A DNA stretch of 61,668 bases, the filler included, from Candidatus Omnitrophota bacterium (GTDB lineage Bacteria; Omnitrophota; Gorgyraeia; Zapsychrales; JBDRMG01): assembly GCA_043812495.1 (NCBI GenBank). It is 9 parts of 9 records of this genome, joined end to end, with 100 filler letters (N's around TTAATTAATTAA, not from the genome) between each part and the next. Parts side by side here need not be neighbours in the genome. Positions count along the whole stretch, not along the records: positions 42,826 to 52,943 come from JBDRMG010000039.1; 8 more parts are not named here. One strand, written 5' to 3'. Within the stretch, counting starts at the first letter, position 1. Each line of letters starts with the position of its first letter. The notes beneath the pieces were generated by a model that saw nothing but the letters and a program-made list of their open reading frames with translations, did no database searches and was not told the DNA's origin. Below are positions 14,570 to 52,781 of the stretch, one piece after another. Position numbers and translations under genes: made by a program.

Positions 14570-14914
14570 CGACCCCGGGCCGATTCTTCATGACGACGTG
14601 ATTTGTGGAGCGGAAGCGAACACAAATCACTGTCGGAATGAACCCCGCCGTCTTTTGGCGGGGAACAACAATTGCTACTCTGCTCCGTACCAAGAATTTG
14701 TAATCAAAAGCGTCCCTGGCACGATTCGAACGTGCGACCCTTTGCTTAGAAGGCAAATGCTCTATCCACCTGAGCTACAGGGACAATTCAAAGTATTTGC
14801 CAAATAACAAATTCTTGGTACGGAGTTAATTCGCCCTTATGATTTACGTTCATTCGCTTTTGCTCATTCCGTAAATCATGGGCTCATTAATCTATCCACC
14901 TGAGCTACGGGGTC
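14570..14914 (-). pseudogene. Split tRNA relic (probably Arg) interrupted by hairpin inserts
   Basis: 5' piece GACCCCGTAGCTCAGGTGGATAGA (14914-14891) and 3' piece GAATCGGCCCGGGGTCG (14586-14570) form a perfect 7-bp acceptor stem; the anticodon arm is lost. Confidence 0.7.
14711..14784 (-). tRNA. tRNA-Arg (UCU)
   Basis: GTCCCTG/CAGGGAC acceptor stem; anticodon arm TTTGC-CTTCTAA-GCAAA; T loop TTCGAAT; CCA not encoded. Confidence 0.95.
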
Positions 14915-15291
14915 AAATATCCTTAATTTTTTATCAGAGAAATTTGACCCTGCTTCGCATTCTTTAATTTCATTTCTAGAAAATGCGAAGTGGGGTCAAT
15001 ATCAAATATCTAATTAACCCGTACCAAATTTTTGTGCGGGGTTAAATCTGCCCGCCATTGATCCATTGGCGGGCTTATTTAAATGATAAGTATTTATATC
15101 AGAATTACTAATAAAAGTAAAGTTGAAGTTAAAAGGATGATGAGAAACTAATCAACCTGGTGGGCAATTAGCATAAGACAAAATGAAGGGGCAAAAAATG
15201 ATGGGTCGGCCCGTCATTGATTCAATGGCGGGCCGACCCTGATCCGTCTTCTCAAAAATTAAAGACCAATGAAGCGCGCACGCACCGCACG

Positions 15292-43090: not shown

Positions 43091-43540
43091 TTAGTCATCC
43101 AGGCTTGTTTCGTCGGACCAGTTGACAATATCATCATCTCCCCCCTCAACTCCATCCGGACCGTTAGAAGAGAGGTCAAATTCCTCTTCGTTATGAATAC
43201 CAGGATTCACATAGACATATTCATTGCCCCAGGGATCTTTGGGAATTCTTTTCTTCTTTAAATACGGTCCGCTCCAATTCATGGGAACCGGCGGAGAACT
43301 TGGCTCTTCCAGCATGGCTCTTAACCCCTGCTCGGTAGTAGGATAACGGCCGTTATCTAACTCATATAAATCAAGGGCCGTCGCTAAATTGACCTCAATG
43401 TCGGCCCGGGCTGCGGCCCGTCTGGCCTGCTCGCCGCGTCCGGCTAAATTCGGCACAACCATGGCGACCAGAATTCCGATGATGATCACGACGAGCATGA
43501 TTTCGATTAACGTAAAACCTTTCGTTGCGTTCAGTCTCAT
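43091..43540 (-). CDS. gspG: Type II secretion major pseudopilin GspG
   Basis: GFTLIEIMLV, YPTTEQGL, WSGPYL, DPWG, DDIVNW. Confidence 0.95.
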   Translation of the reverse strand: MRLNATKGFTLIEIMLVVIIIGILVAMVVPNLAGRGEQARRAAARADIEVNLATALDLYELDNGRYPTTEQGLRAMLEEPSSPPVPMNWSGPYLKKKRIPKDPWGNEYVYVNPGIHNEEEFDLSSNGPDGVEGGDDDIVNWSDETSLDD

Positions 43541-43550
43541 ATCTTCCCCC

Positions 43551-44780
43551 TTATCGTATGATGAGATTCATTTTGAAAATAGGCAGCAACATCGCTATGA
43601 CAATAAAACCCACGACAGCGCCGATAGCGACAATCAACAGCGGTTCCAATAAAGACGTTACTGTTTTCACGGATCGATCCGATTGCCGTTCATAGGCATC
43701 CGCTAACTTTTGAAGAGCGTGCTCGAGATGCCCCGATTCTTCACCCACCGCGATAACGCTTCGGCTGGCGTCCGGGAAATGAGGACATTTTCTTAAGGCT
43801 AAACTCAATGAGGCTCCGCCCGCCACCTCTTCGGAGACCTTCCGGATTTCTTTTCTGATCACTTCGTTATCCAAAAGGGCCCATACAGCGTCCAGAGCCG
43901 TCACGATCGTGACCCCGCTCTGAAGTAAAGTCCCGAGCGTACGCGCAAACCGACCGATCTCGACATCTTGAATAAATTTTCCAAGAAAAGGAATCTTTAA
44001 TTTCCATTGGTCCAACCACAACTTTCCTTCAGCACTTTGCGTTAACTTTCTGAAATACCACGCAATCAATAGAGCAACGAAAAGAACCAGCCACCAGAAT
44101 CGTTCCAAAAACTGGCTTAAGGTGATAAGAATAATGGTCGGTAAAGGAAGCGCTTGAGATAAATCATCGAACATCACGGTCAGGCGGGGAATCACAAAGG
44201 TGAGCAAAACAAAAATGGTTGCGGTGCCCACGATCAGCATCAGGGCCGGATAAATGAGACTCGAGCGAACCTTGGCCCGCGTCTCTTCATCCTTGTCGGC
44301 AAATTCGACCAGACGGCCTAGGACCACATCCAGGTTTCCGCTGATCTCGCCGGAATGAATCATATTCACATAGAGTCTGGAAAAAACCTGGGGATATTGC
44401 GCGAGGGCATCCGCCAGACTCCCGCCATCCCGCACAAAGCTCCGTATTCTCTCTATGATTCCCTTGAAAACAGGATTGAGTGTTTGGGCAACAACAACAT
44501 TGAGGGCGCGCAAAAGGGGAACGCCACCTTCGACGAGATCAAAAAGCTGTCGCGTAAACATCGTTCTATCCGTTGACTTAATCCGACGATAGAATAGGGG
44601 ATAAGGGTTTTTTGCTTTTTTGGGGATCCGCCCCTCTTTGGGCGGATGGGTCGAAACATCTAAGGGAGCAAGACCTAAGCGGATGATTTGCGAAATGGCA
44701 CCGTCTAGATTCTCGGCGTCCAGGGATCCGTTGATCGTTTCGCCCGGACCTTTCTTGGCTTTGTAAAAGAATCTCGGCAT
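43551..44780 (-). CDS. gspF: Type II secretion inner-membrane protein GspF/PilC
   Basis: FTRQL, GEISGNL, LIYP, VGEESG, LLEP; start 44780 preferred. Confidence 0.92.
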   Translation of the reverse strand: MPRFFYKAKKGPGETINGSLDAENLDGAISQIIRLGLAPLDVSTHPPKEGRIPKKAKNPYPLFYRRIKSTDRTMFTRQLFDLVEGGVPLLRALNVVVAQTLNPVFKGIIERIRSFVRDGGSLADALAQYPQVFSRLYVNMIHSGEISGNLDVVLGRLVEFADKDEETRAKVRSSLIYPALMLIVGTATIFVLLTFVIPRLTVMFDDLSQALPLPTIILITLSQFLERFWWLVLFVALLIAWYFRKLTQSAEGKLWLDQWKLKIPFLGKFIQDVEIGRFARTLGTLLQSGVTIVTALDAVWALLDNEVIRKEIRKVSEEVAGGASLSLALRKCPHFPDASRSVIAVGEESGHLEHALQKLADAYERQSDRSVKTVTSLLEPLLIVAIGAVVGFIVIAMLLPIFKMNLIIR

Positions 44781-45149
44781 AGTAGTGTTGATTCTAACAT
44801 ACGCCATATTTCATTTCAACCCAGATTTTGCCTGTGTCTATTTAAGGTCACTAGGCAAAATCTGCCTCCCGTGAGATCTGAAAGATCTCACGGGATTAAT
44901 CCCTTACAATCCGAAGGATAGTACGGGGCAAAGGGCCGATTGATTAAATCTCAAAGAGATTTAATCATGCCATCGGGGTTGATCCAAAAATAATTATTGA
45001 GTTTAAAAATTGGATCAAGGCAAATAAAGAAGACAACGAATATGTGGAAGTTTGATAGACCAAGGGAACACGGGGTGGGACAGGAGGGAAAATCAACCCG
45101 TTCGACGCACCCCGCTCTGTTCATGGCGTGGTTTGGCGCCGTCGAAGCA

Positions 45150-45524
45150 TCAATGCGAAACGGGCTCGTCTCTTTTTTCCCTGACGGTTCTTTTCAGAGA
45201 CTGAACAACCTTGAGAACAAAGACTTTGTCGTCGACCACGACGAATTGTTCGCCCACAATTTTATAGATGAATTTGTGAATTCCTTCCTGCGTATCATGT
45301 GTTTTGACGAGATATGTATGAGGGTGTTCTTCTTCTTTTTTCTTTTGTTCGATATAGACCACGAGATCCACGGGATCCGTAAACTCAAGGGTCTCTTTGA
45401 CGCAGTAGACCATCCTTTTCTCAACATCTTGAATAGAGCAACTTTCTTCAAAATGTTCAGATAACAAGAGTTCTGATCTTTTTCTCTCCAACGATGTGAT
45501 ATTCCTGAATAGGAGTTCGCGCAT
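45150..45524 (-). CDS. Hypothetical protein downstream of the c-di-GMP-I riboswitch
   Basis: 124-aa ORF with a GGAGG RBS. Confidence 0.75.
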   Translation of the reverse strand: MRELLFRNITSLERKRSELLLSEHFEESCSIQDVEKRMVYCVKETLEFTDPVDLVVYIEQKKKEEEHPHTYLVKTHDTQEGIHKFIYKIVGEQFVVVDDKVFVLKVVQSLKRTVREKRDEPVSH

Positions 45525-45627: not shown

Positions 45628-45789
45628 TGATTCCAGAGATTTTAAGAGACTCCAGAGATTATTCTTTCAATGAGATCATCGCTGTAATCTTCATTAATCA
45701 CCGTAATCAGGTTCTATCATTCAACCTAAATCATAAAGAACCAAAAAAACCTATTCTTTTTCGAAGAATAGGTTGAATCTATGATTAGA

Positions 45790-45988
45790 TTCGGTAGCCA
45801 GACCATCCCAAACTTATTGGGATTCTTGGCTTTGCCCCGGCTTCGCCAAATACTTATCGTGTTTGGCTACGCCGGGCCAGGCGAAGCTAAAGGCGAAAGC
45901 TCTTTAGCGGAGCCTGGGCCCTATTCTTGCGAATTCCGCCAAAATGATTGGCGGATCCGCCACGATTTATGGCGGAAGTTTGCCGTTT
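45790..45988 (-). ncRNA. c-di-GMP-I (GEMM-I) riboswitch interrupted by four hairpin inserts
   Basis: Removing 45836-45917 and 45935-45976 gives AAACGGCAAACTATTCGCAAGAATAGGGCGCAAAGCCAAGAATCCCAATAAGTTTGGGATGGTCTGGCTACCGAA. Confidence 0.8.
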
Positions 45989-46010
45989 CGTCTAACGATC
46001 TCTTGGTATA

Positions 46011-46038
46011 AGTATAATATGATTAAAGGAATGCACAA
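46011..46038 (-). promoter_or_regulatory. Putative sigma70 promoter for the riboswitch leader
   Basis: TTGTGC-16 nt-TATACT on the minus strand, just upstream of the aptamer. Confidence 0.4.
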
Positions 46039-46191
46039 GTGAGGGATGAAAAAGATTGAGGATTCGGGGAAAACGCTTTCTCCGAAGCCAGAATACCGTC
46101 TTCGAAAGACCATGGCTCAACAGCATTTTGCTTCGTCTTTCGGATTGATTCGTTCATTTTAACCTGTCTTACTTTGGGTATGCTTGTCATA

Positions 46192-46220: not shown

Positions 46221-46367
46221 AATATATCAAATCTAAATTTGTTTTAATCATTCAATAAAATTTATATGTTTTTCTTCCCTCATCCGTCCATAAAAAGTAA
46301 TCGTCCCGCAAATTTACCAAAACCGAAAAATTACCTATTCAACCCTTTAATAGGGAAAGGACATGCC

Positions 46368-49300
46368 ATGAAAGCAAAACATTTTTCCGGGATCGTTGGT
46401 CTTTTTGTTCTTGGTCTTTTAATGCTTACGCCTAAAATCTCATTGGCCCTTACATCTGGACCGATGACTCCCGAAGTAGCGACATTCGCTACCGTCGGCA
46501 AAACCGGCGAGTCCGTTGATTTTGCAACTGGGGATTTTAACTGGGGCGCCCCCATCATCAACATACCGGGCAGAGGAAACCTGGACTTCCCGCTTTCATT
46601 ACAATATACAGCCGGAGTCAAAACCGATCAGGAAGCGAGCTGGGTCGGGCTGGGATGGAATTTAAATCCCGGGGTCATCTACAGGACAACGCCCTATGTC
46701 CCTGACGATTATAGCGGCGGGAACGTCTGGACCCGTATCAGGGGTTCAGGGTCCAGCCTCAATGTCGGGGCATTCGGGCTCGGTTACAGCTCAAGCCAAT
46801 CGGGAGGAAATAAATCCAGCGGTTTTTCTTTCAGTTCGGCAATGAGTTTTTTCAACATATTCGGGAGTTTCAATATCTGGAAAACAAGATACGACAAGGA
46901 CTGGCCCGTTTACGGATTTTTGCATTACGAAAATCCGGCATCAAAAGGAGGCTGGGACGGAGGCGAGGATGGATGCGGAATAGAATGCTTCAGGAGAGAA
47001 TTAAACCCTGCCAACACAATCGGCATCAATTATATCATCTATTACGTTCCCGCGCCCCCTATGGATACCTATGTTGTTTCCGGCCCTGGCCCGTCAGGGG
47101 AGATGATTCCCTGGCGTCCCAACTATACGCTGGTCGGCAACAGACCTGACGGTAATAATGAGAATGACATCAACGGTTCCGCCAAATTCTTCTTTGCCAA
47201 CCACCAAGGCACAAGCGAAGATTATCAGCCTCTCTCCAATATCGCCAATGACAGTGCCGTAAGAATTGAGCATGAGTTTGATGCGGGCGGTTCGATTTCT
47301 TCTTTTACCATTTATGATATTGACGGTACACGCTATGTATACGGTCAACCGGCTCTCATCAATGGCATCGGATATCATGGCCAAAAAGATGATGACAATT
47401 ATTCCAAGTTCGGCCTTTCAGCCCCCTATGCCTATGCCTGGCATCTGACAGAGATTTTATCTGCCGATTACGTGGATTCCGACGGAACAACAGGCCCCAG
47501 CGAAGACGACCGCGGCAACTGGATCAAATTCACCTATACACGGTCGGTAGCCAACTACGGATTTTCCGACCCCTACGAAGGCTGGAAAGAGGCCCCTTAT
47601 ATTTTTGAGAACAACCAGTTGACCAGAAGCTGGGGAGAAAAAGAGCTTTGGTATCTTGATAAGATTATTACGCCGACCCATGAAGCGCATTTTCTGATAT
47701 CAGATCGTTTGGACGCAAGAGAATCCAATGCTACGTGGAACTCTCTGGGAACGGCGGCCGGCGGAACGGACCATCCGTTGAAACTGGATACCGTCAACCT
47801 CTATGCGCGGGCAAACTCAAATCTCACTCTGGCCGGCATGGTTGATTTCACATACGATTATTCTTTAAGACCCGGTACCGTCAACTCGAATGCGACAGGA
47901 GGCGGGACCCTGACGCTCAAAGAAGTTTCCAAAAACGATTCCACGACCAATCCTGAAATATATCAGTTTCAATACAACGGGACAAATCCCACCTGGGGAA
48001 AAAACAAATGGGACCAATGGGGTTTTTATAAATTTAATGGAGCCTGGACTGTTCACGGCGATCCATCCAATGGGGACGACGCCAAGGCCTGGTCGCTGAC
48101 GGACATCATTTATCCGACGGGCGGCATTCTTCATGCCGAATATGAATCCGACGTCTACCAGTATGTGTCCACCCAGTATCTTGGGGGCGGCTTAAGAATA
48201 TCCTCCTTGACGCTCAATGACGGCCTGGGCAATGAGACGACCACTAAATATGAGTATTCAACGGGAAAAATCGGGAACACGCGCCCTGCTCCCTACGAGA
48301 GCATTATTCCGACCGTTACAAGCCATCCTTTTTCATCTTCGGATGTCCATTATTCTTTGGTGACGGAAATACCCGGATATGATTCAGGTAACGCGCCTTT
48401 TGGGAAAACGATCGTCAATTTTACAACAGCCAGCGACTATCACGCATACGAAGATCTTACTCTTGATCCGGATCCCTACTATGGGCAGGCCGTTCTTGAA
48501 TCGCCCCCGGGAACATGGCACATTCCCGAAGTAGCCGGCCGAGGCCATGTGGCGGCCCTCTACAACCGCAACTATGCCTGGAGGGTTCCTAAGTGGGTCA
48601 AAGTATTCAACTCATCCGATGAGGTGATTGAACAAACGGATTATACATTGGTTGAAGATCTTCCCCGCGAGGCGTTAACATTTTACAATGTCCTCTCGAC
48701 AAAGGATAATCATTATTATTATGTAGACTTCTATCTGTGGGGGAAATTGACGGTTGATTCGAAAACATATAAGAAACTGGATGTCCCTGTGTATTCCATC
48801 TATGAATACGATCCCAGGACCGAACTTGTCACGCTCGAGGAGATCAGTGATTTTTCCGGGAACAAGAAACTCATCGGTGTGGATTACTGCGCCCAGGGTA
48901 ATGCCTGCGGAGATTTAGAAAGCGGCGCTGTCGGCGAGGTCATCGAAGCCAAAAACATTTTGAACCTGCCCTATCAAAGCTGGATCAAAGAGAACAACCT
49001 CGGCAACCCGTACAAAACATACAACTACAACATCTATCACGTGGAAACCGACGGAGAATCGGATTACGCCAAGATGCGGTTATATCCTAGAAAGAATCTC
49101 AGCTGGCTCGATGATGACGCGGACGGACAGCTGGACTGGGGCGGAGAAGATTCATTCATAGGAGAAGAAAATCTGACCTTTGACGCTTACGGAAACGTGT
49201 TGACACAAAAGGATCCACGCGACCAGGTCACAACTTACACTTACGATCCCTTGCGATATAATGCTTTGTTAAAAACTTCCTCAAAAGGCGGTTTGGCAAC

Positions 49301-52300
49301 GGAATTTTTCTACGAGGACAACAGGTTCTACGCGCCCACAAAAATCGTTAACGCGGACGGAACATCCGGTCAATTTGTCTATGATGATTTTGGAAGGCTC
49401 GCGACAAAAATCGCGACCACGGGCGAGCAAACCGATTATACCTATCATTATGTCGGTTCCTCGATAAGCACGTCCAACCTCAACACGATCCAGACAGATG
49501 CGAGTATCGATGGCGTGACAAGAACATCCGTCTCTTCACTTGACGGTCTTGGCCGGAATGTCATGGGCAGGTCTAAAAAAGACGCATTGAACTGGATTAT
49601 CACGATGCAAAATTTTGATGATCTCGGCAGACCTTATCAAAGTTCTTATCCATTTGTATCATCAAGCATAGATTATAATCAAGCGTGGCCTGACGGATAT
49701 TCGCGCGCAACATATTATGATGATCCGCTCGCGCGAATTTATGAAGCTTACCCCAATTATGCCGCTTCGCCTTCTCTGAAAAGCACGACTTCTTATGCCA
49801 AAGACGGACCGTCAAGCTTCCTGACAACAACGATCGATCCTATGGGCAAGTTCACCAAAATCTACAAGCATGCCCTGGGCTTAGAGACTACGTATGTCCG
49901 TCAAAACATGCATAATTATTCGCAAACCGCCTATGCGGATATTTTTGGCCACACCATTGAAATGACCGATACGGACGGCAAAACAACGGAATTCTTTTAT
50001 GACACCCTGGGAAGAAAGATCGCCTCCAAAAATCCTGATATGGACGCGTTTACATCTGTATCTTATCCGTATCTCGGGCAAGTCACTGAGGAGTGGGTCT
50101 ATGATGATGCGGGAAACGTGGTCTGGTACAAGGACGCGAATCTCGGTCATGCCGCAACCCCCACGCATCTCAACCAAACTTATGATTCTCTGGGAAGAAA
50201 CACCGATACCGGCATCTACACAGACCAGATGGAATATCAACTCGAGACGTGGATAGGGACATACTACAATTATGTCTACAATCATCACGGTATGCACCAA
50301 CCGACCAGGACAGATGCCGAGATGTCCAATTGGCAGAACACCAATGATGATAAGATCACTCATATCCAAAATGATCATCAGATTGAAGCATTATTCTATG
50401 ACAATGATGGGTTTTTGGGAGAAAAGCTGGTACTTTCAAACGGAAAAGTATACAGTTTTAAATATTATTACAACGAGGCTGGGGAAATCACAAGTGAGAC
50501 GATCCATCCTAAAATCTATGATGATCCGGGCATCGGCATACACGATCTCGTTGTGGAAGACGCTACAGAGATTGAGACCTATTATACGTACAACCAGCTT
50601 GGCCAGGTAGAAGATGTTTTCCTCAAGAAAGGGACCGACCCTCTTGTCCAGGTCGCCCATTTCACGTATAAGCCAAGCGGACAGATTGATACCCTGACCC
50701 GGTCAGTCAACAATCTGACGACGACATACGGATATGACGACTTAAAAAGGCTTAATCTCATCCAGAACAACAACCTTCAACTATCCACATACGGATTCAA
50801 TCGGTTCTTCACTCATGATGATCTTGGAAGAATCACGGGGATTTACAACGATACCTATGCCAATCCGGAGGAGTTGATCGGCAATTTTAACCTTGGGTAC
50901 CCGGAATCTTATGATAATTTCGGAAGACTTAAAAGCGGGATCATCACATCTGTCGTGAATCCCCAAAAGCAGATCTGGCTTAACTACCAGCATGACAATG
51001 CCGGCAACCGTACAGACAAAAGTGAGTTTGATTACTATCAATTCAGTGGTATCTACGACGATGATTACAGCTACTTTACTGGAACAAGCAGATTACACCA
51101 GGTCGGCAGAGATCTCGACGATGATGATATTAACGACGAGACACGCACCTTCAGTTATGATAAAAACGGAAATATCCTCAGCAAACTCTTTGAGAAAACG
51201 GGTCAGCCTAATCAAACCACGTCTTACGTGTACGACGATTACAATAACATGATCCAGCTGACGTTACCCAATAGTGCCGTAGAAACATACGATTATGCAG
51301 GAAGCGGCAAGCGGATCAAAAAAATCGACAGTCAATCGCGGGAGTTTGTCTATATCTACGATGGGAACTCGGTTGTCTTTGACAGGCAGCTGAATGGATT
51401 TGTAGCTGGCGATACAAACGGAGACAGGTTTGTGGACATTGACGATATGGTCTATCTCATGGCCTATATCTTCACAGGAGGCTCTGCTCCCGAACCGCTG
51501 GCCATCGGAGACTGCGACGGATCCGGAGGAATAGACATCGATGATATTGTCTATCTCCAGGCTTATATCTTTACCGGAGGCCCGGCGCCTATCTTGCCGG
51601 AGAATTTGTCTTTGAATACGGCCTATCTCGATGTGAATGGCATACGATTGCTTTCGGTGTCGGAAGGAAATCTTGGCAATATCAAATATTACCTCAGCGA
51701 CCAGGTTGGAAGCGCGAGCGTCATCGCCAACAGTCAAGGCGCAGAAATAAACCGGAAGGAGTACTATCCGTTCGGAAATGCGTTCTCAAGTTCGGGAGTC
51801 TATTTATCCAAGTATCAATATACCGGCAAAGAGCTTGATGACACGACAGGTTTGCATTACTATGGCGCAAGATTCTATGATTCAGATCTTGGCAGGTTTG
51901 TGGCCAAGGATACTGTTTATGACGGTCCTTCTCCATACGCTTATGCCAACAATAATCCGCTTATTGCCAAGGATCCTACAGGGAACGCGGTCGAAGGCGC
52001 GGCTTTTGACTTTGATAATCGTATGATACACTTTGTAGATATGGATTATCTTTTGGTACCTAGAAGTAGTGTCCTAACTGAATTCAAGGGGCGGTCCTGT
52101 ATATCTCATTCTTTCGTCCTGTTTGGTCGCCCCAAAGGTAGGAAGAGATTTGAGAAAGTCCTTGGGCACCTGATACTCGAAGAAACAGGTAACTCTAAGA
52201 GCATAATGATTAATGCCCTTAATTGCGAAGGCAGGAGTTCATTTAATAAATACCTTGCTCTTTTGCAAGGAACGGCAGAACTAACAAAAGCTGACTATAT

Positions 52301-52781
52301 ACATTTAAATGAGAATGCTTTTGATATAGTACAATACAGAAGATTTGGAATGAAAGGTAAAGGTATTTGGCATACTATGTATTACAAAGTTCTAACAGAT
52401 AAATTGGGTTGGAGTTATAGAAGAGATGGGGGGGTTCTCAAAAAAATCCATACCTGGATAAATCCCGGAAAATCTGGTTTTTCAGGGGGTTCTCCCGGGG
52501 GCATGCTCCCGAAAGGTCCGAGTTATTTAAAAATGATTCCTTTTGTTGGAATAAGCGCGGGGCTATTGTCCTACGGCTCAGAAGTATTTGCCGGAGACTA
52601 CTGGGCGGCTGGCATGGATCTTTTTGGATTAATACCAGGTATGGGCGATGCTATGGATCTCGTAAGATTCGGTACTTCGCTCATCCCAGAAGGTGCGCCT
52701 TTGCCAGCCTATTATGGCCGTGAATCAGGCAGATTCGGAGACCGGTACATCACTCAGCCGGATAATACATCCGTCCGTTAG
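46368..52781 (+). CDS. Secreted RHS/YD-repeat protein with internal dockerin and C-terminal extension
   Basis: Signal peptide after an RBS; SpvB-like ASWVGLGWNL; YD repeats; core YTGKELD..GARFYDSDLGRF..YANNNPL..DPTG. Confidence 0.92.
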   Translation: MKAKHFSGIVGLFVLGLLMLTPKISLALTSGPMTPEVATFATVGKTGESVDFATGDFNWGAPIINIPGRGNLDFPLSLQYTAGVKTDQEASWVGLGWNLNPGVIYRTTPYVPDDYSGGNVWTRIRGSGSSLNVGAFGLGYSSSQSGGNKSSGFSFSSAMSFFNIFGSFNIWKTRYDKDWPVYGFLHYENPASKGGWDGGEDGCGIECFRRELNPANTIGINYIIYYVPAPPMDTYVVSGPGPSGEMIPWRPNYTLVGNRPDGNNENDINGSAKFFFANHQGTSEDYQPLSNIANDSAVRIEHEFDAGGSISSFTIYDIDGTRYVYGQPALINGIGYHGQKDDDNYSKFGLSAPYAYAWHLTEILSADYVDSDGTTGPSEDDRGNWIKFTYTRSVANYGFSDPYEGWKEAPYIFENNQLTRSWGEKELWYLDKIITPTHEAHFLISDRLDARESNATWNSLGTAAGGTDHPLKLDTVNLYARANSNLTLAGMVDFTYDYSLRPGTVNSNATGGGTLTLKEVSKNDSTTNPEIYQFQYNGTNPTWGKNKWDQWGFYKFNGAWTVHGDPSNGDDAKAWSLTDIIYPTGGILHAEYESDVYQYVSTQYLGGGLRISSLTLNDGLGNETTTKYEYSTGKIGNTRPAPYESIIPTVTSHPFSSSDVHYSLVTEIPGYDSGNAPFGKTIVNFTTASDYHAYEDLTLDPDPYYGQAVLESPPGTWHIPEVAGRGHVAALYNRNYAWRVPKWVKVFNSSDEVIEQTDYTLVEDLPREALTFYNVLSTKDNHYYYVDFYLWGKLTVDSKTYKKLDVPVYSIYEYDPRTELVTLEEISDFSGNKKLIGVDYCAQGNACGDLESGAVGEVIEAKNILNLPYQSWIKENNLGNPYKTYNYNIYHVETDGESDYAKMRLYPRKNLSWLDDDADGQLDWGGEDSFIGEENLTFDAYGNVLTQKDPRDQVTTYTYDPLRYNALLKTSSKGGLATEFFYEDNRFYAPTKIVNADGTSGQFVYDDFGRLATKIATTGEQTDYTYHYVGSSISTSNLNTIQTDASIDGVTRTSVSSLDGLGRNVMGRSKKDALNWIITMQNFDDLGRPYQSSYPFVSSSIDYNQAWPDGYSRATYYDDPLARIYEAYPNYAASPSLKSTTSYAKDGPSSFLTTTIDPMGKFTKIYKHALGLETTYVRQNMHNYSQTAYADIFGHTIEMTDTDGKTTEFFYDTLGRKIASKNPDMDAFTSVSYPYLGQVTEEWVYDDAGNVVWYKDANLGHAATPTHLNQTYDSLGRNTDTGIYTDQMEYQLETWIGTYYNYVYNHHGMHQPTRTDAEMSNWQNTNDDKITHIQNDHQIEALFYDNDGFLGEKLVLSNGKVYSFKYYYNEAGEITSETIHPKIYDDPGIGIHDLVVEDATEIETYYTYNQLGQVEDVFLKKGTDPLVQVAHFTYKPSGQIDTLTRSVNNLTTTYGYDDLKRLNLIQNNNLQLSTYGFNRFFTHDDLGRITGIYNDTYANPEELIGNFNLGYPESYDNFGRLKSGIITSVVNPQKQIWLNYQHDNAGNRTDKSEFDYYQFSGIYDDDYSYFTGTSRLHQVGRDLDDDDINDETRTFSYDKNGNILSKLFEKTGQPNQTTSYVYDDYNNMIQLTLPNSAVETYDYAGSGKRIKKIDSQSREFVYIYDGNSVVFDRQLNGFVAGDTNGDRFVDIDDMVYLMAYIFTGGSAPEPLAIGDCDGSGGIDIDDIVYLQAYIFTGGPAPILPENLSLNTAYLDVNGIRLLSVSEGNLGNIKYYLSDQVGSASVIANSQGAEINRKEYYPFGNAFSSSGVYLSKYQYTGKELDDTTGLHYYGARFYDSDLGRFVAKDTVYDGPSPYAYANNNPLIAKDPTGNAVEGAAFDFDNRMIHFVDMDYLLVPRSSVLTEFKGRSCISHSFVLFGRPKGRKRFEKVLGHLILEETGNSKSIMINALNCEGRSSFNKYLALLQGTAELTKADYIHLNENAFDIVQYRRFGMKGKGIWHTMYYKVLTDKLGWSYRRDGGVLKKIHTWINPGKSGFSGGSPGGMLPKGPSYLKMIPFVGISAGLLSYGSEVFAGDYWAAGMDLFGLIPGMGDAMDLVRFGTSLIPEGAPLPAYYGRESGRFGDRYITQPDNTSVR

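Follow-up and report, generated by a model that had tools for sequence, protein, structure and literature searches.

We find that a class I c-di-GMP riboswitch of a Candidatus Omnitrophota bacterium (assembly GCA_043812495.1, here G000) took two separate insertions, each made of two hairpins standing back to back, with neither duplication nor loss of target bases. The RNA is best explained as a class I c-di-GMP riboswitch ahead of an orf124–gspF–gspG secretion/pilus operon. Comparative evidence suggests that such back-to-back pairs may leave the sensor working, and that they often hide it from standard annotation. The feature is a real new variant of a known riboswitch, made by REP/SRM-like elements that leave no target duplication. 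Taken as a whole, the explanation that we favour, with reasonable but far from complete confidence, is that of a scarless double insertion into an OFF switch that would still be working, by pairs that GIY-YIG nucleases would have spread.

The analysed window is a stretch of 61,668 nt made of nine contigs joined by N spacers, and coordinates refer to this whole stretch unless a contig is named; the locus lies on contig C39, on the minus strand. All four hairpins that had been predicted there are confirmed: two of 21 nt (45956-45976 and 45935-45955) and two of 41 nt (45877-45917 and 45836-45876), 124 nt in total. The original prediction counted four insertions, but the hairpins abut with zero spacer as inverted pairs of 42 and 82 nt, and this points to two events. 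The two 41-mers are in opposite orientation, as had been noted, with the pyrimidine-loop face first and the purine-loop face second. Folding of the native 211-nt strand gives the four hairpins together with the top of P2, P3 and P1 (z = -7.6; 0 of 200 shuffles equally stable), and only the top four P2 pairs form in the lowest-energy fold. The three-stem layout of P1, P2 with its GNRA loop, and P3 is present in the folds of both the native and the hairpin-deleted forms.

Comparison with an empty allele, which the original prediction had proposed to seek in relatives, defines the junctions. Such an allele is found in G007 (locus L016), a syntenic, uninterrupted riboswitch, and filled and empty alleles were compared by scripted pairwise alignment. 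Removal of both inserts leaves a c-di-GMP-I aptamer that aligns to this orthologue without a gap across either junction, with no bases extra or missing, and that is identical to it at 48 of the first 53 positions. Relative to the empty allele, 0 bases are duplicated at either insert and no direct repeat is present at the junctions, so that the target duplication by which DDE-type IS elements and MITEs are recognised is absent here. The claim of no target duplication thus holds, and the junctions are consistent with the scarless mechanism that had been proposed; far from being a singular event, the double insertion here exemplifies a pattern seen across the phylum. Chance and assembly artefact are ruled out by the fold z-score, by recurrence in 51 genomes and by an independent contig.

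Table. Features of the interrupted riboswitch locus and of related layouts elsewhere in G000
Feature	Coordinates	Strand	Basis or remark
Near-palindromic operator-like 12-mer	46069..46080	-	By eye; similar motifs upstream of many such leaders
Probable sigma-70-type promoter (-10 at 46016-46011, weak -35 at 46038-46033)	46011..46038	-	By eye
Aptamer 5' part: P1 5' strand, G20 (45984), G21-C22, A23-A25, first two P2 bases	45977..45995	-	Matches L016
Insert 1: zero-spacer pair of 21-nt S-family hairpins, P2 5' strand, bond 27/28	45935..45976	-	Fold
P2 top with GNRA loop, P2 3' strand, C44 equivalent (45918)	45918..45934	-	Orthologue alignment
Insert 2: zero-spacer pair of 41-nt L-family hairpins, C44/G45 bond	45836..45917	-	Fold
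Aptamer 3' part: G45-C46, A47 (45833), P3 with G83 (about 45803), C92 (45794), P1 3' strand	45785..45835	-	RF01051 partial match, orthologue alignment
Intrinsic terminator: 11-pair stem 45774-45748, U tract	45743..45774	-	Expression platform
First regulated gene, 124 aa (orf124)	45150..45524	-	No family found; homologues in 18/61 genomes searched
T2SSF/PilC-type platform protein gene (gspF)	43551..44807	-	Pfam PF00482, E 2e-65
GspG-type pseudopilin gene (gspG)	43091..43540	-	Pfam PF08334 + PF07963
Partial-tRNA + GIY-YIG layouts (contig coordinates)	G000:C51:7930-8330, C66:14490-15040, C62:23395-23650, C18:44400-44880

The core elements, together with the RF01051 and orthologue matches, uphold the assignment to GEMM-I, and we regard it as virtually certain that this is a real aptamer of that class. 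We take the Vc2 numbering and the ligand-contact roles of G20, A47 and C92 to apply to the focal aptamer, where the equivalent residues are a G, an A and a C. On this assumed numbering, insert 1 splits the bond 27/28 within the P2 5' strand, and insert 2 separates C44 from G45. Equivalents of both C44 and G83 are present, with insert 2 one bond away. Like other c-di-GMP-I riboswitches (RF01051, RF03167; Vibrio cholerae Vc2), the RNA carries all core elements in order, including G20, the GNRA loop, C44 and G83, and it sits with a terminator in the leader of a pilus/secretion operon. It differs in holding 124 nt at two internal P2 bonds, which doubles the aptamer; unlike the known examples, too, inserted aptamers mostly score below the Rfam cut-off.

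The original prediction also held that such RNAs would be missed by standard searches. This fails for the focal locus, which scores 36 bits with RF01051 (cut-off 35), but in a match that covers only 45790-45857 and in which part of the fourth hairpin stands in for the true 5' half. It holds for 31 of the 40 other inserted loci run against Rfam, the remaining nine reaching the cut-off. Since about a tenth of canonical aptamers are interrupted (see below) and most of those tested fall below the cut-off, the c-di-GMP regulon of these uncultured bacteria is probably undercounted.

Downstream of the aptamer, the 3' strand of P2 (45928-45920) can form 9/9 pairs with the terminator 5' arm (-10.1 kcal/mol), and the G007 orthologue keeps this pairing by a compensatory change, which together suggest an OFF switch for orf124-gspF-gspG. 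With ligand bound, P2 would retain its 3' strand and the terminator would form; without ligand, the P2 3' strand would instead pair with the terminator arm. Most likely the focal RNA is such a transcriptional OFF switch and is predicted to be still working. A promoter scan of the focal leader gave no candidate above threshold. The operator-like 12-mer, which in our judgement resembles LacI/CcpA-type sites, recurs upstream of the promoters of many such leaders (L098-L117) and is possibly a shared transcription-factor site.

The surroundings of orf124 vary among relatives. In G007 the orf124 homologue has the same gspF neighbour and the uninterrupted riboswitch scores 60.5 bits with RF03167; in G008 the homologue is preceded by a different, intact aptamer; and no riboswitch was found at the orf124 orthologues of G011 and G001. 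No new orthologue of the focal locus appeared among 168 genomes of the order, viral contigs gave 0 matches, and a metagenome search for focal-locus alleles returned six matches, one being a copy of the G007 allele and five unrelated stretches. None of the sequencing-run contigs spans the whole focal locus. A relative yields one contig, of depth 3, that runs across both inserts; 10 of its 12 listed substitutions and all six indels fall within hairpins, a weak pattern since hairpins make up 64% of the span and the contig is single and of low depth.

Pairs of this kind recur at other aptamers. Four more aptamers of G000 (on C1, C6, C16 and C66) have pairs at or beside the C44/G45 bond, that on C66 being nested and shifted by one base; another has an insert before G20, and one on C40 breaks off in the start of a hairpin. 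A second doubly interrupted aptamer, on C57, carries pairs at both focal bonds, and aptamers with two pairs occur elsewhere in G007 (L117) and G470 (L358). The P2 bond of insert 1 is also struck in G000 (C57), G001, G004, G005, G015 and G086. A search pattern for this P2 site, run on 151 genomes, gave matches about equal in number to its reversed control, with four real cases among 49 places inspected. We also note tandem c-di-GMP-I riboswitches with inserts at different bonds (G000:C16:89716-90028), a similar tandem in G001 (L106) with an insert in P2, and that no TPP riboswitch was found in G000.

Across the phylum, the C44/G45 bond is a recurrent site. An element-specific pattern gave 32 matches among 185,579 species genomes; 13 have a fully paired P2, and all 13 of these (10 labelled Omnitrophota, three planctomycete bins) carry two abutting hairpins at C44/G45. 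A looser pattern was applied to 401 genomes of the phylum, 80 of which had matches, 128 in all. After 13 matches lacking P2 pairing by eye had been set aside, 102 distinct matches had at least four of five P2 pairs and 12 were weaker. The 102 comprise 91 aptamers with an insert, ten with a one-base variant and one without the 3' half. The inserts of the 91 are 35-250 nt long, lie at C44/G45, have largely unrelated sequences and are spread over 51 genomes. In 74 of them we find two hairpins with no spacer and at least four terminal pairs each, an arrangement reached by 3.4% of dinucleotide shuffles; the other 17 resemble imperfect pairs by eye or were mis-parsed (two), and no single hairpin was recognised at this bond among the 91. 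Across these 401 genomes the intact pattern is matched about 744 times, which puts the interrupted share at about 11%, a lower bound because inserts starting with a purine fall outside the search pattern; the counts are drawn from related genomes and are thus not independent. In several genomes with 0 intact pattern matches, interrupted ones are nevertheless present (six in G018, five in G009, three each in G161 and G282, two in G033). Of 52 lower-scoring Rfam matches in five relatives, 20 were inspected: by eye, pairs are present in 13, spread over five positions, and L100 has a single-hairpin insert, at the P3 site. The ten one-base variants, each with a single extra pyrimidine at C44/G45 (L142, L143, L146, L147, L155-L158 and L161 among the loci), imply that this bond tolerates a one-base bulge too.

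Is the interrupted aptamer still functional? Mutational data on Vc2 give reason for caution: in the accessible part of PMC11705072 the C44-G83 pair is needed for binding, and even swapping it abolished binding. An insert one bond from this essential pair could therefore do damage. At core positions outside the search pattern, inserted aptamers score as intact ones do (medians 35.7 for 89 inserted, the two mis-parsed being left out of 91, and 36.8 for 99 intact; p = 0.91; shuffled median 11.6), although the pattern itself fixed the 5' half and the RCAAA motif and so favours undecayed cases. All 74 aptamers with perfect abutting pairs retain base pair 22-45, which bridges the insert (52 C-G, 20 U-A, 2 U-G), and a terminator-like hairpin follows 65 of 88 inserted against 53 of 97 intact aptamers. 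Complementarity between P2 and the terminator gave no signal as a general test of function in either the inserted or the intact set (median ranks 0.38 and 0.46, p = 0.71). At a locus after valS in G000, G007 and G011 (G008 has the same downstream gene type), the pair is kept at C44/G45 in four families with unrelated hairpin sequences, which suggests selection on shape. The focal core, once its hairpins are deleted, ranks at the 35th percentile of the 99 intact aptamers and bears out the predicted lack of evident decay, but this says little on the focal copy itself since its inserts look young. From this comparative evidence, retention of function, which had been offered as a possibility, now appears probable: we are rather confident that the one-pair variants function, and hold it likely, with more reserve, that the focal two-pair copy does so as well.

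The geometry of the inserts offers a possible reason for such tolerance. Abutting hairpins would stack end to end like one nicked helix, so that the strand would enter and leave at nearly one point. Insert 1, within P2, would then form a perfect four-way junction that keeps the length of the helix, and insert 2 would project as a side arm beside the C44-G83 pair.

Three other accounts of the RNA were weighed. The focal copy might be dead or crippled by two recent insertions, its core having had no time to decay. Its hairpins are indeed near free genomic copies (the first two within one mismatch, the last two within 4-5), only the top four P2 pairs form in its lowest-energy fold, the C44-G83 pair is fragile in the accessible Vc2 data, and the orthologues without a riboswitch in G011 and G001 suggest that it is dispensable at orf124. 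We nevertheless consider a dead copy unlikely, given that old, fully diverged pairs occur at both bonds within intact cores, that other two-pair aptamers exist (G000 C57, G007 L117, G470 L358) and, weakly, that the changes in the relative's single contig lie mostly in hairpins. Alternatively, the pair at C44/G45 may be domesticated and positively selected, tuning affinity, folding time or pausing, or binding a protein. The interrupted share of canonical aptamers, the genomes in which every canonical match is interrupted, and persistence at one locus across four families speak for such a role. Yet the pairs share neither sequence nor length, orthologues free of a pair control the same gene, and persistence may reflect no more than the rarity of precise loss; domestication seems to us decidedly improbable. 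Excision of the pairs from the RNA in the manner of introns, giving an ordinary aptamer, would fit their exact boundaries and the inserts in the genome's sole RNase P RNA match. It is very improbable all the same, as the boundaries show no conservation of sequence, a riboswitch that works by termination has to do so while transcription proceeds, and similar pairs stand in frame within long ORFs, mostly as multiples of three among the cases seen. A working OFF switch with both pairs retained is the reading that we prefer.

The inserts almost surely derive from dispersed repeat families. Both families are dispersed in G000; counting both strands and the hairpins themselves, the genome has 52 and 48 copies related to the two S-family hairpins of insert 1. 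Zero-spacer pairs number 187 raw matches genome-wide, against 28 in a shuffled genome, and most copies found by the family patterns are unpaired (176 of 193 chains single). Polarity is constant among the ten full-length 41+41 pairs, in which the pyrimidine face always precedes the purine face, and the two loop types occur in both orders; together these indicate that each pair is a single polar unit that has been inserted, or flipped, in either direction. The C44/G45 bond is used by no fewer than three unrelated hairpin families, and by eye the insert flanks share no common target sequence.

Small GIY-YIG nucleases are linked to these families. A motif scan of G000 gives 14 small GIY-YIG ORFs, and PF01541 is present in 5/5 proteins scanned; the hairpin-linked genes include those at C4:17629 and C51:8027. 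The three proteins beside L hairpins form a supported clade (98/96), the three beside CCGAC pairs group weakly (82/74), and the two beside S pairs are not firmly placed in the tree. In other genomes, 15 of 15 homologues of the L-linked protein are preceded, at 230 nt or less, by an L hairpin (control windows: 7 and 2 of 373), usually directly after the end of a tRNA or tmRNA, and once as a zero-spacer pair. For the S-linked protein, an S hairpin is nearby in four of seven homologues, including the three closest; the pattern used finds none at the other three. Hairpin families and GIY-YIG groups are thus linked.

We propose that small, single-strand-specific (Ssn-like) GIY-YIG nucleases would spread the pairs, each hairpin family having its own nuclease group; we rate the chance that they are the movers as about even. 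The linkage matches the Ssn/NTS arrangement of Neisseria. According to PMC11893778, SsnA binds one strand of the hairpin and cuts nearby, a few bases from the hairpin and not at its foot, and what is demonstrated there is cutting, not DNA joining; its discussion notes a similarity to HUH transposases. Within our own data, a competing account has the pairs moved by an HUH transposase (RAYT or IS200/IS605-type), or spread and flipped by recombination among paralogous riboswitches, with the GIY-YIG genes as passengers. HUH transposases insert single-stranded DNA without target duplication, and G000 has two HUH-motif ORFs of RAYT/Y1 type, at C5:29921(-) and C31:3934(-). Paralogous aptamers, for their part, are alike in sequence near the bond, and flipping in place might be made possible by imperfect inverted ends. 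We know of no joining activity for Ssn nucleases, which leaves room for either route. The family-specific linkage of hairpins to GIY-YIG genes weighs against an HUH mover, and duplication of one ancestral insert would leave at least three unrelated families at one bond unexplained; we rate this account as possible, if clearly less probable than not. More tentative still, and rather unlikely as a whole, is that Omnitrophota would harbour minimal mobile elements, hairpin pairs moved as single-stranded DNA (perhaps as a closed dumbbell) by cognate Ssn-like GIY-YIG nucleases, which would enter structured-RNA genes scarlessly and cancel their own damage through the four-way junction.

We note several arrangements around GIY-YIG, tRNA and tmRNA genes in G000. 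At tRNA genes, a partial tRNA copy split by a hairpin pair is followed by a GIY-YIG gene and then, in three of four cases, by an intact tRNA (Table), a layout that looks like an element integrating at tRNA genes. Interrupted tRNAs as sole copies are ruled out: the genome has 41 intact tRNAs, and the inserts seen are in partial duplicates. On C4 (L360:141-534), the end of a tRNA-Ser is followed by a pyrimidine-face hairpin, a GIY-YIG gene and a purine-face hairpin, the polarity of the 82-nt pair with a gene inside; L367 of G007 is similar. A tmRNA 5' stub with L hairpins precedes the intact tmRNA (G000:C8:10705-10870), beyond whose 3' end lie L hairpins and a GIY-YIG gene. A tRNA-Asn at G000:C51:8274-8867 has a 518-nt intron by ARAGORN, which we take to be probably group I.

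Among known systems, several are similar in part. REPINs are spaced inverted pairs that fold as one long hairpin and are extragenic, and REP/BIME repeats go with RAYT transposases; as we know these repeats, they are likewise small palindromes in inverted pairs, with many clustered copies. The Omnitrophota pairs, unlike REPINs, have no spacer, form two hairpins and are found inside structured RNAs and reading frames. Rickettsia palindromic elements, single units of about 150 nt, are tolerated in frame in proteins and in RNA genes; the Omnitrophota pairs differ in recurring at one bond of a ligand-binding RNA. Similar too is the Neisseria Ssn/NTS/SRM system (SsnA), where, in the accessible text of PMC11893778, single-domain GIY-YIG proteins of about 80-100 aa stand beside strand-asymmetric dispersed hairpin repeats, and here too small GIY-YIG genes with a flanking hairpin are found. 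In contrast to the SRM described there, the Omnitrophota repeats are zero-spacer inverted pairs, several nuclease-hairpin sets coexist, and repeats lie at tRNA, tmRNA and riboswitch genes (the main text of that paper has no mention of tRNA). By their description in the accessible part of PMC10085805, the DHEs of fungal mitochondria are the nearest structural analogue, being short, GC-rich two-hairpin units, presumed mobile and in some cases within rRNA genes; they differ in being organellar, with no nuclease partner and no riboswitch targets described in that part. We found no description of hairpin pairs in c-di-GMP riboswitches in the literature within reach of our search, which took in few subscription papers. 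The main text of an Omnitrophota genome preprint (10.64898/2026.06.07.730766) does not mention riboswitch, hairpin or palindrome, and the available part of a genome-language-model survey (10.64898/2026.10.21.760802) does not mention Omnitrophota. What the present analysis tests directly is the presence of two pairs within a single aptamer whose orthologue is empty, how often such inserts occur, the null model, conservation of the core and the link of hairpin families to their own nucleases.

These results indicate that a well-studied riboswitch apparently tolerates large inserts at a distance of one bond from a tertiary pair that is essential, and they suggest a simple structural rule, two abutting hairpins with no spacer. 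Through the family-specific link between hairpins and GIY-YIG genes it becomes possible to ask directly if repeats are spread by their own Ssn-like nucleases, which PMC11893778 leaves open. Were the mobile-element reading true, the pair would be an 'intron that need not be spliced', Ssn nucleases would gain a transposase-like role, and RNA engineering would gain a rule by which modules of 40-250 nt could be built into the core of ligand-binding RNAs.

Hairpin inserts also occur in other genes of G000. The sole RNase P RNA match of the genome (L348:1470-2040; G000:C29, about 14680-15250; 74.7 bits, under the cut-off) is interrupted close to its 5' end by inserts of the hairpin families, and a nested insert of L type directly precedes its conserved 3' end. 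Two open frames, one of 25,094 aa and one of 11,238 aa (G000:C65:10537-25853; C53:3366, 20928), contain hairpin pairs in frame, as do a 358-aa frame (C47) and a 627-aa frame (C66). At the focal locus, three more perfect hairpins lie between orf124 and gspF (44820-44970). Divergent from the operon, 46266-52781 encodes an RHS-repeat protein of 2171 aa that, towards its end, matches dockerin weakly. Several relatives instead have, upstream of orf124, what is by eye a secretion ATPase gene.
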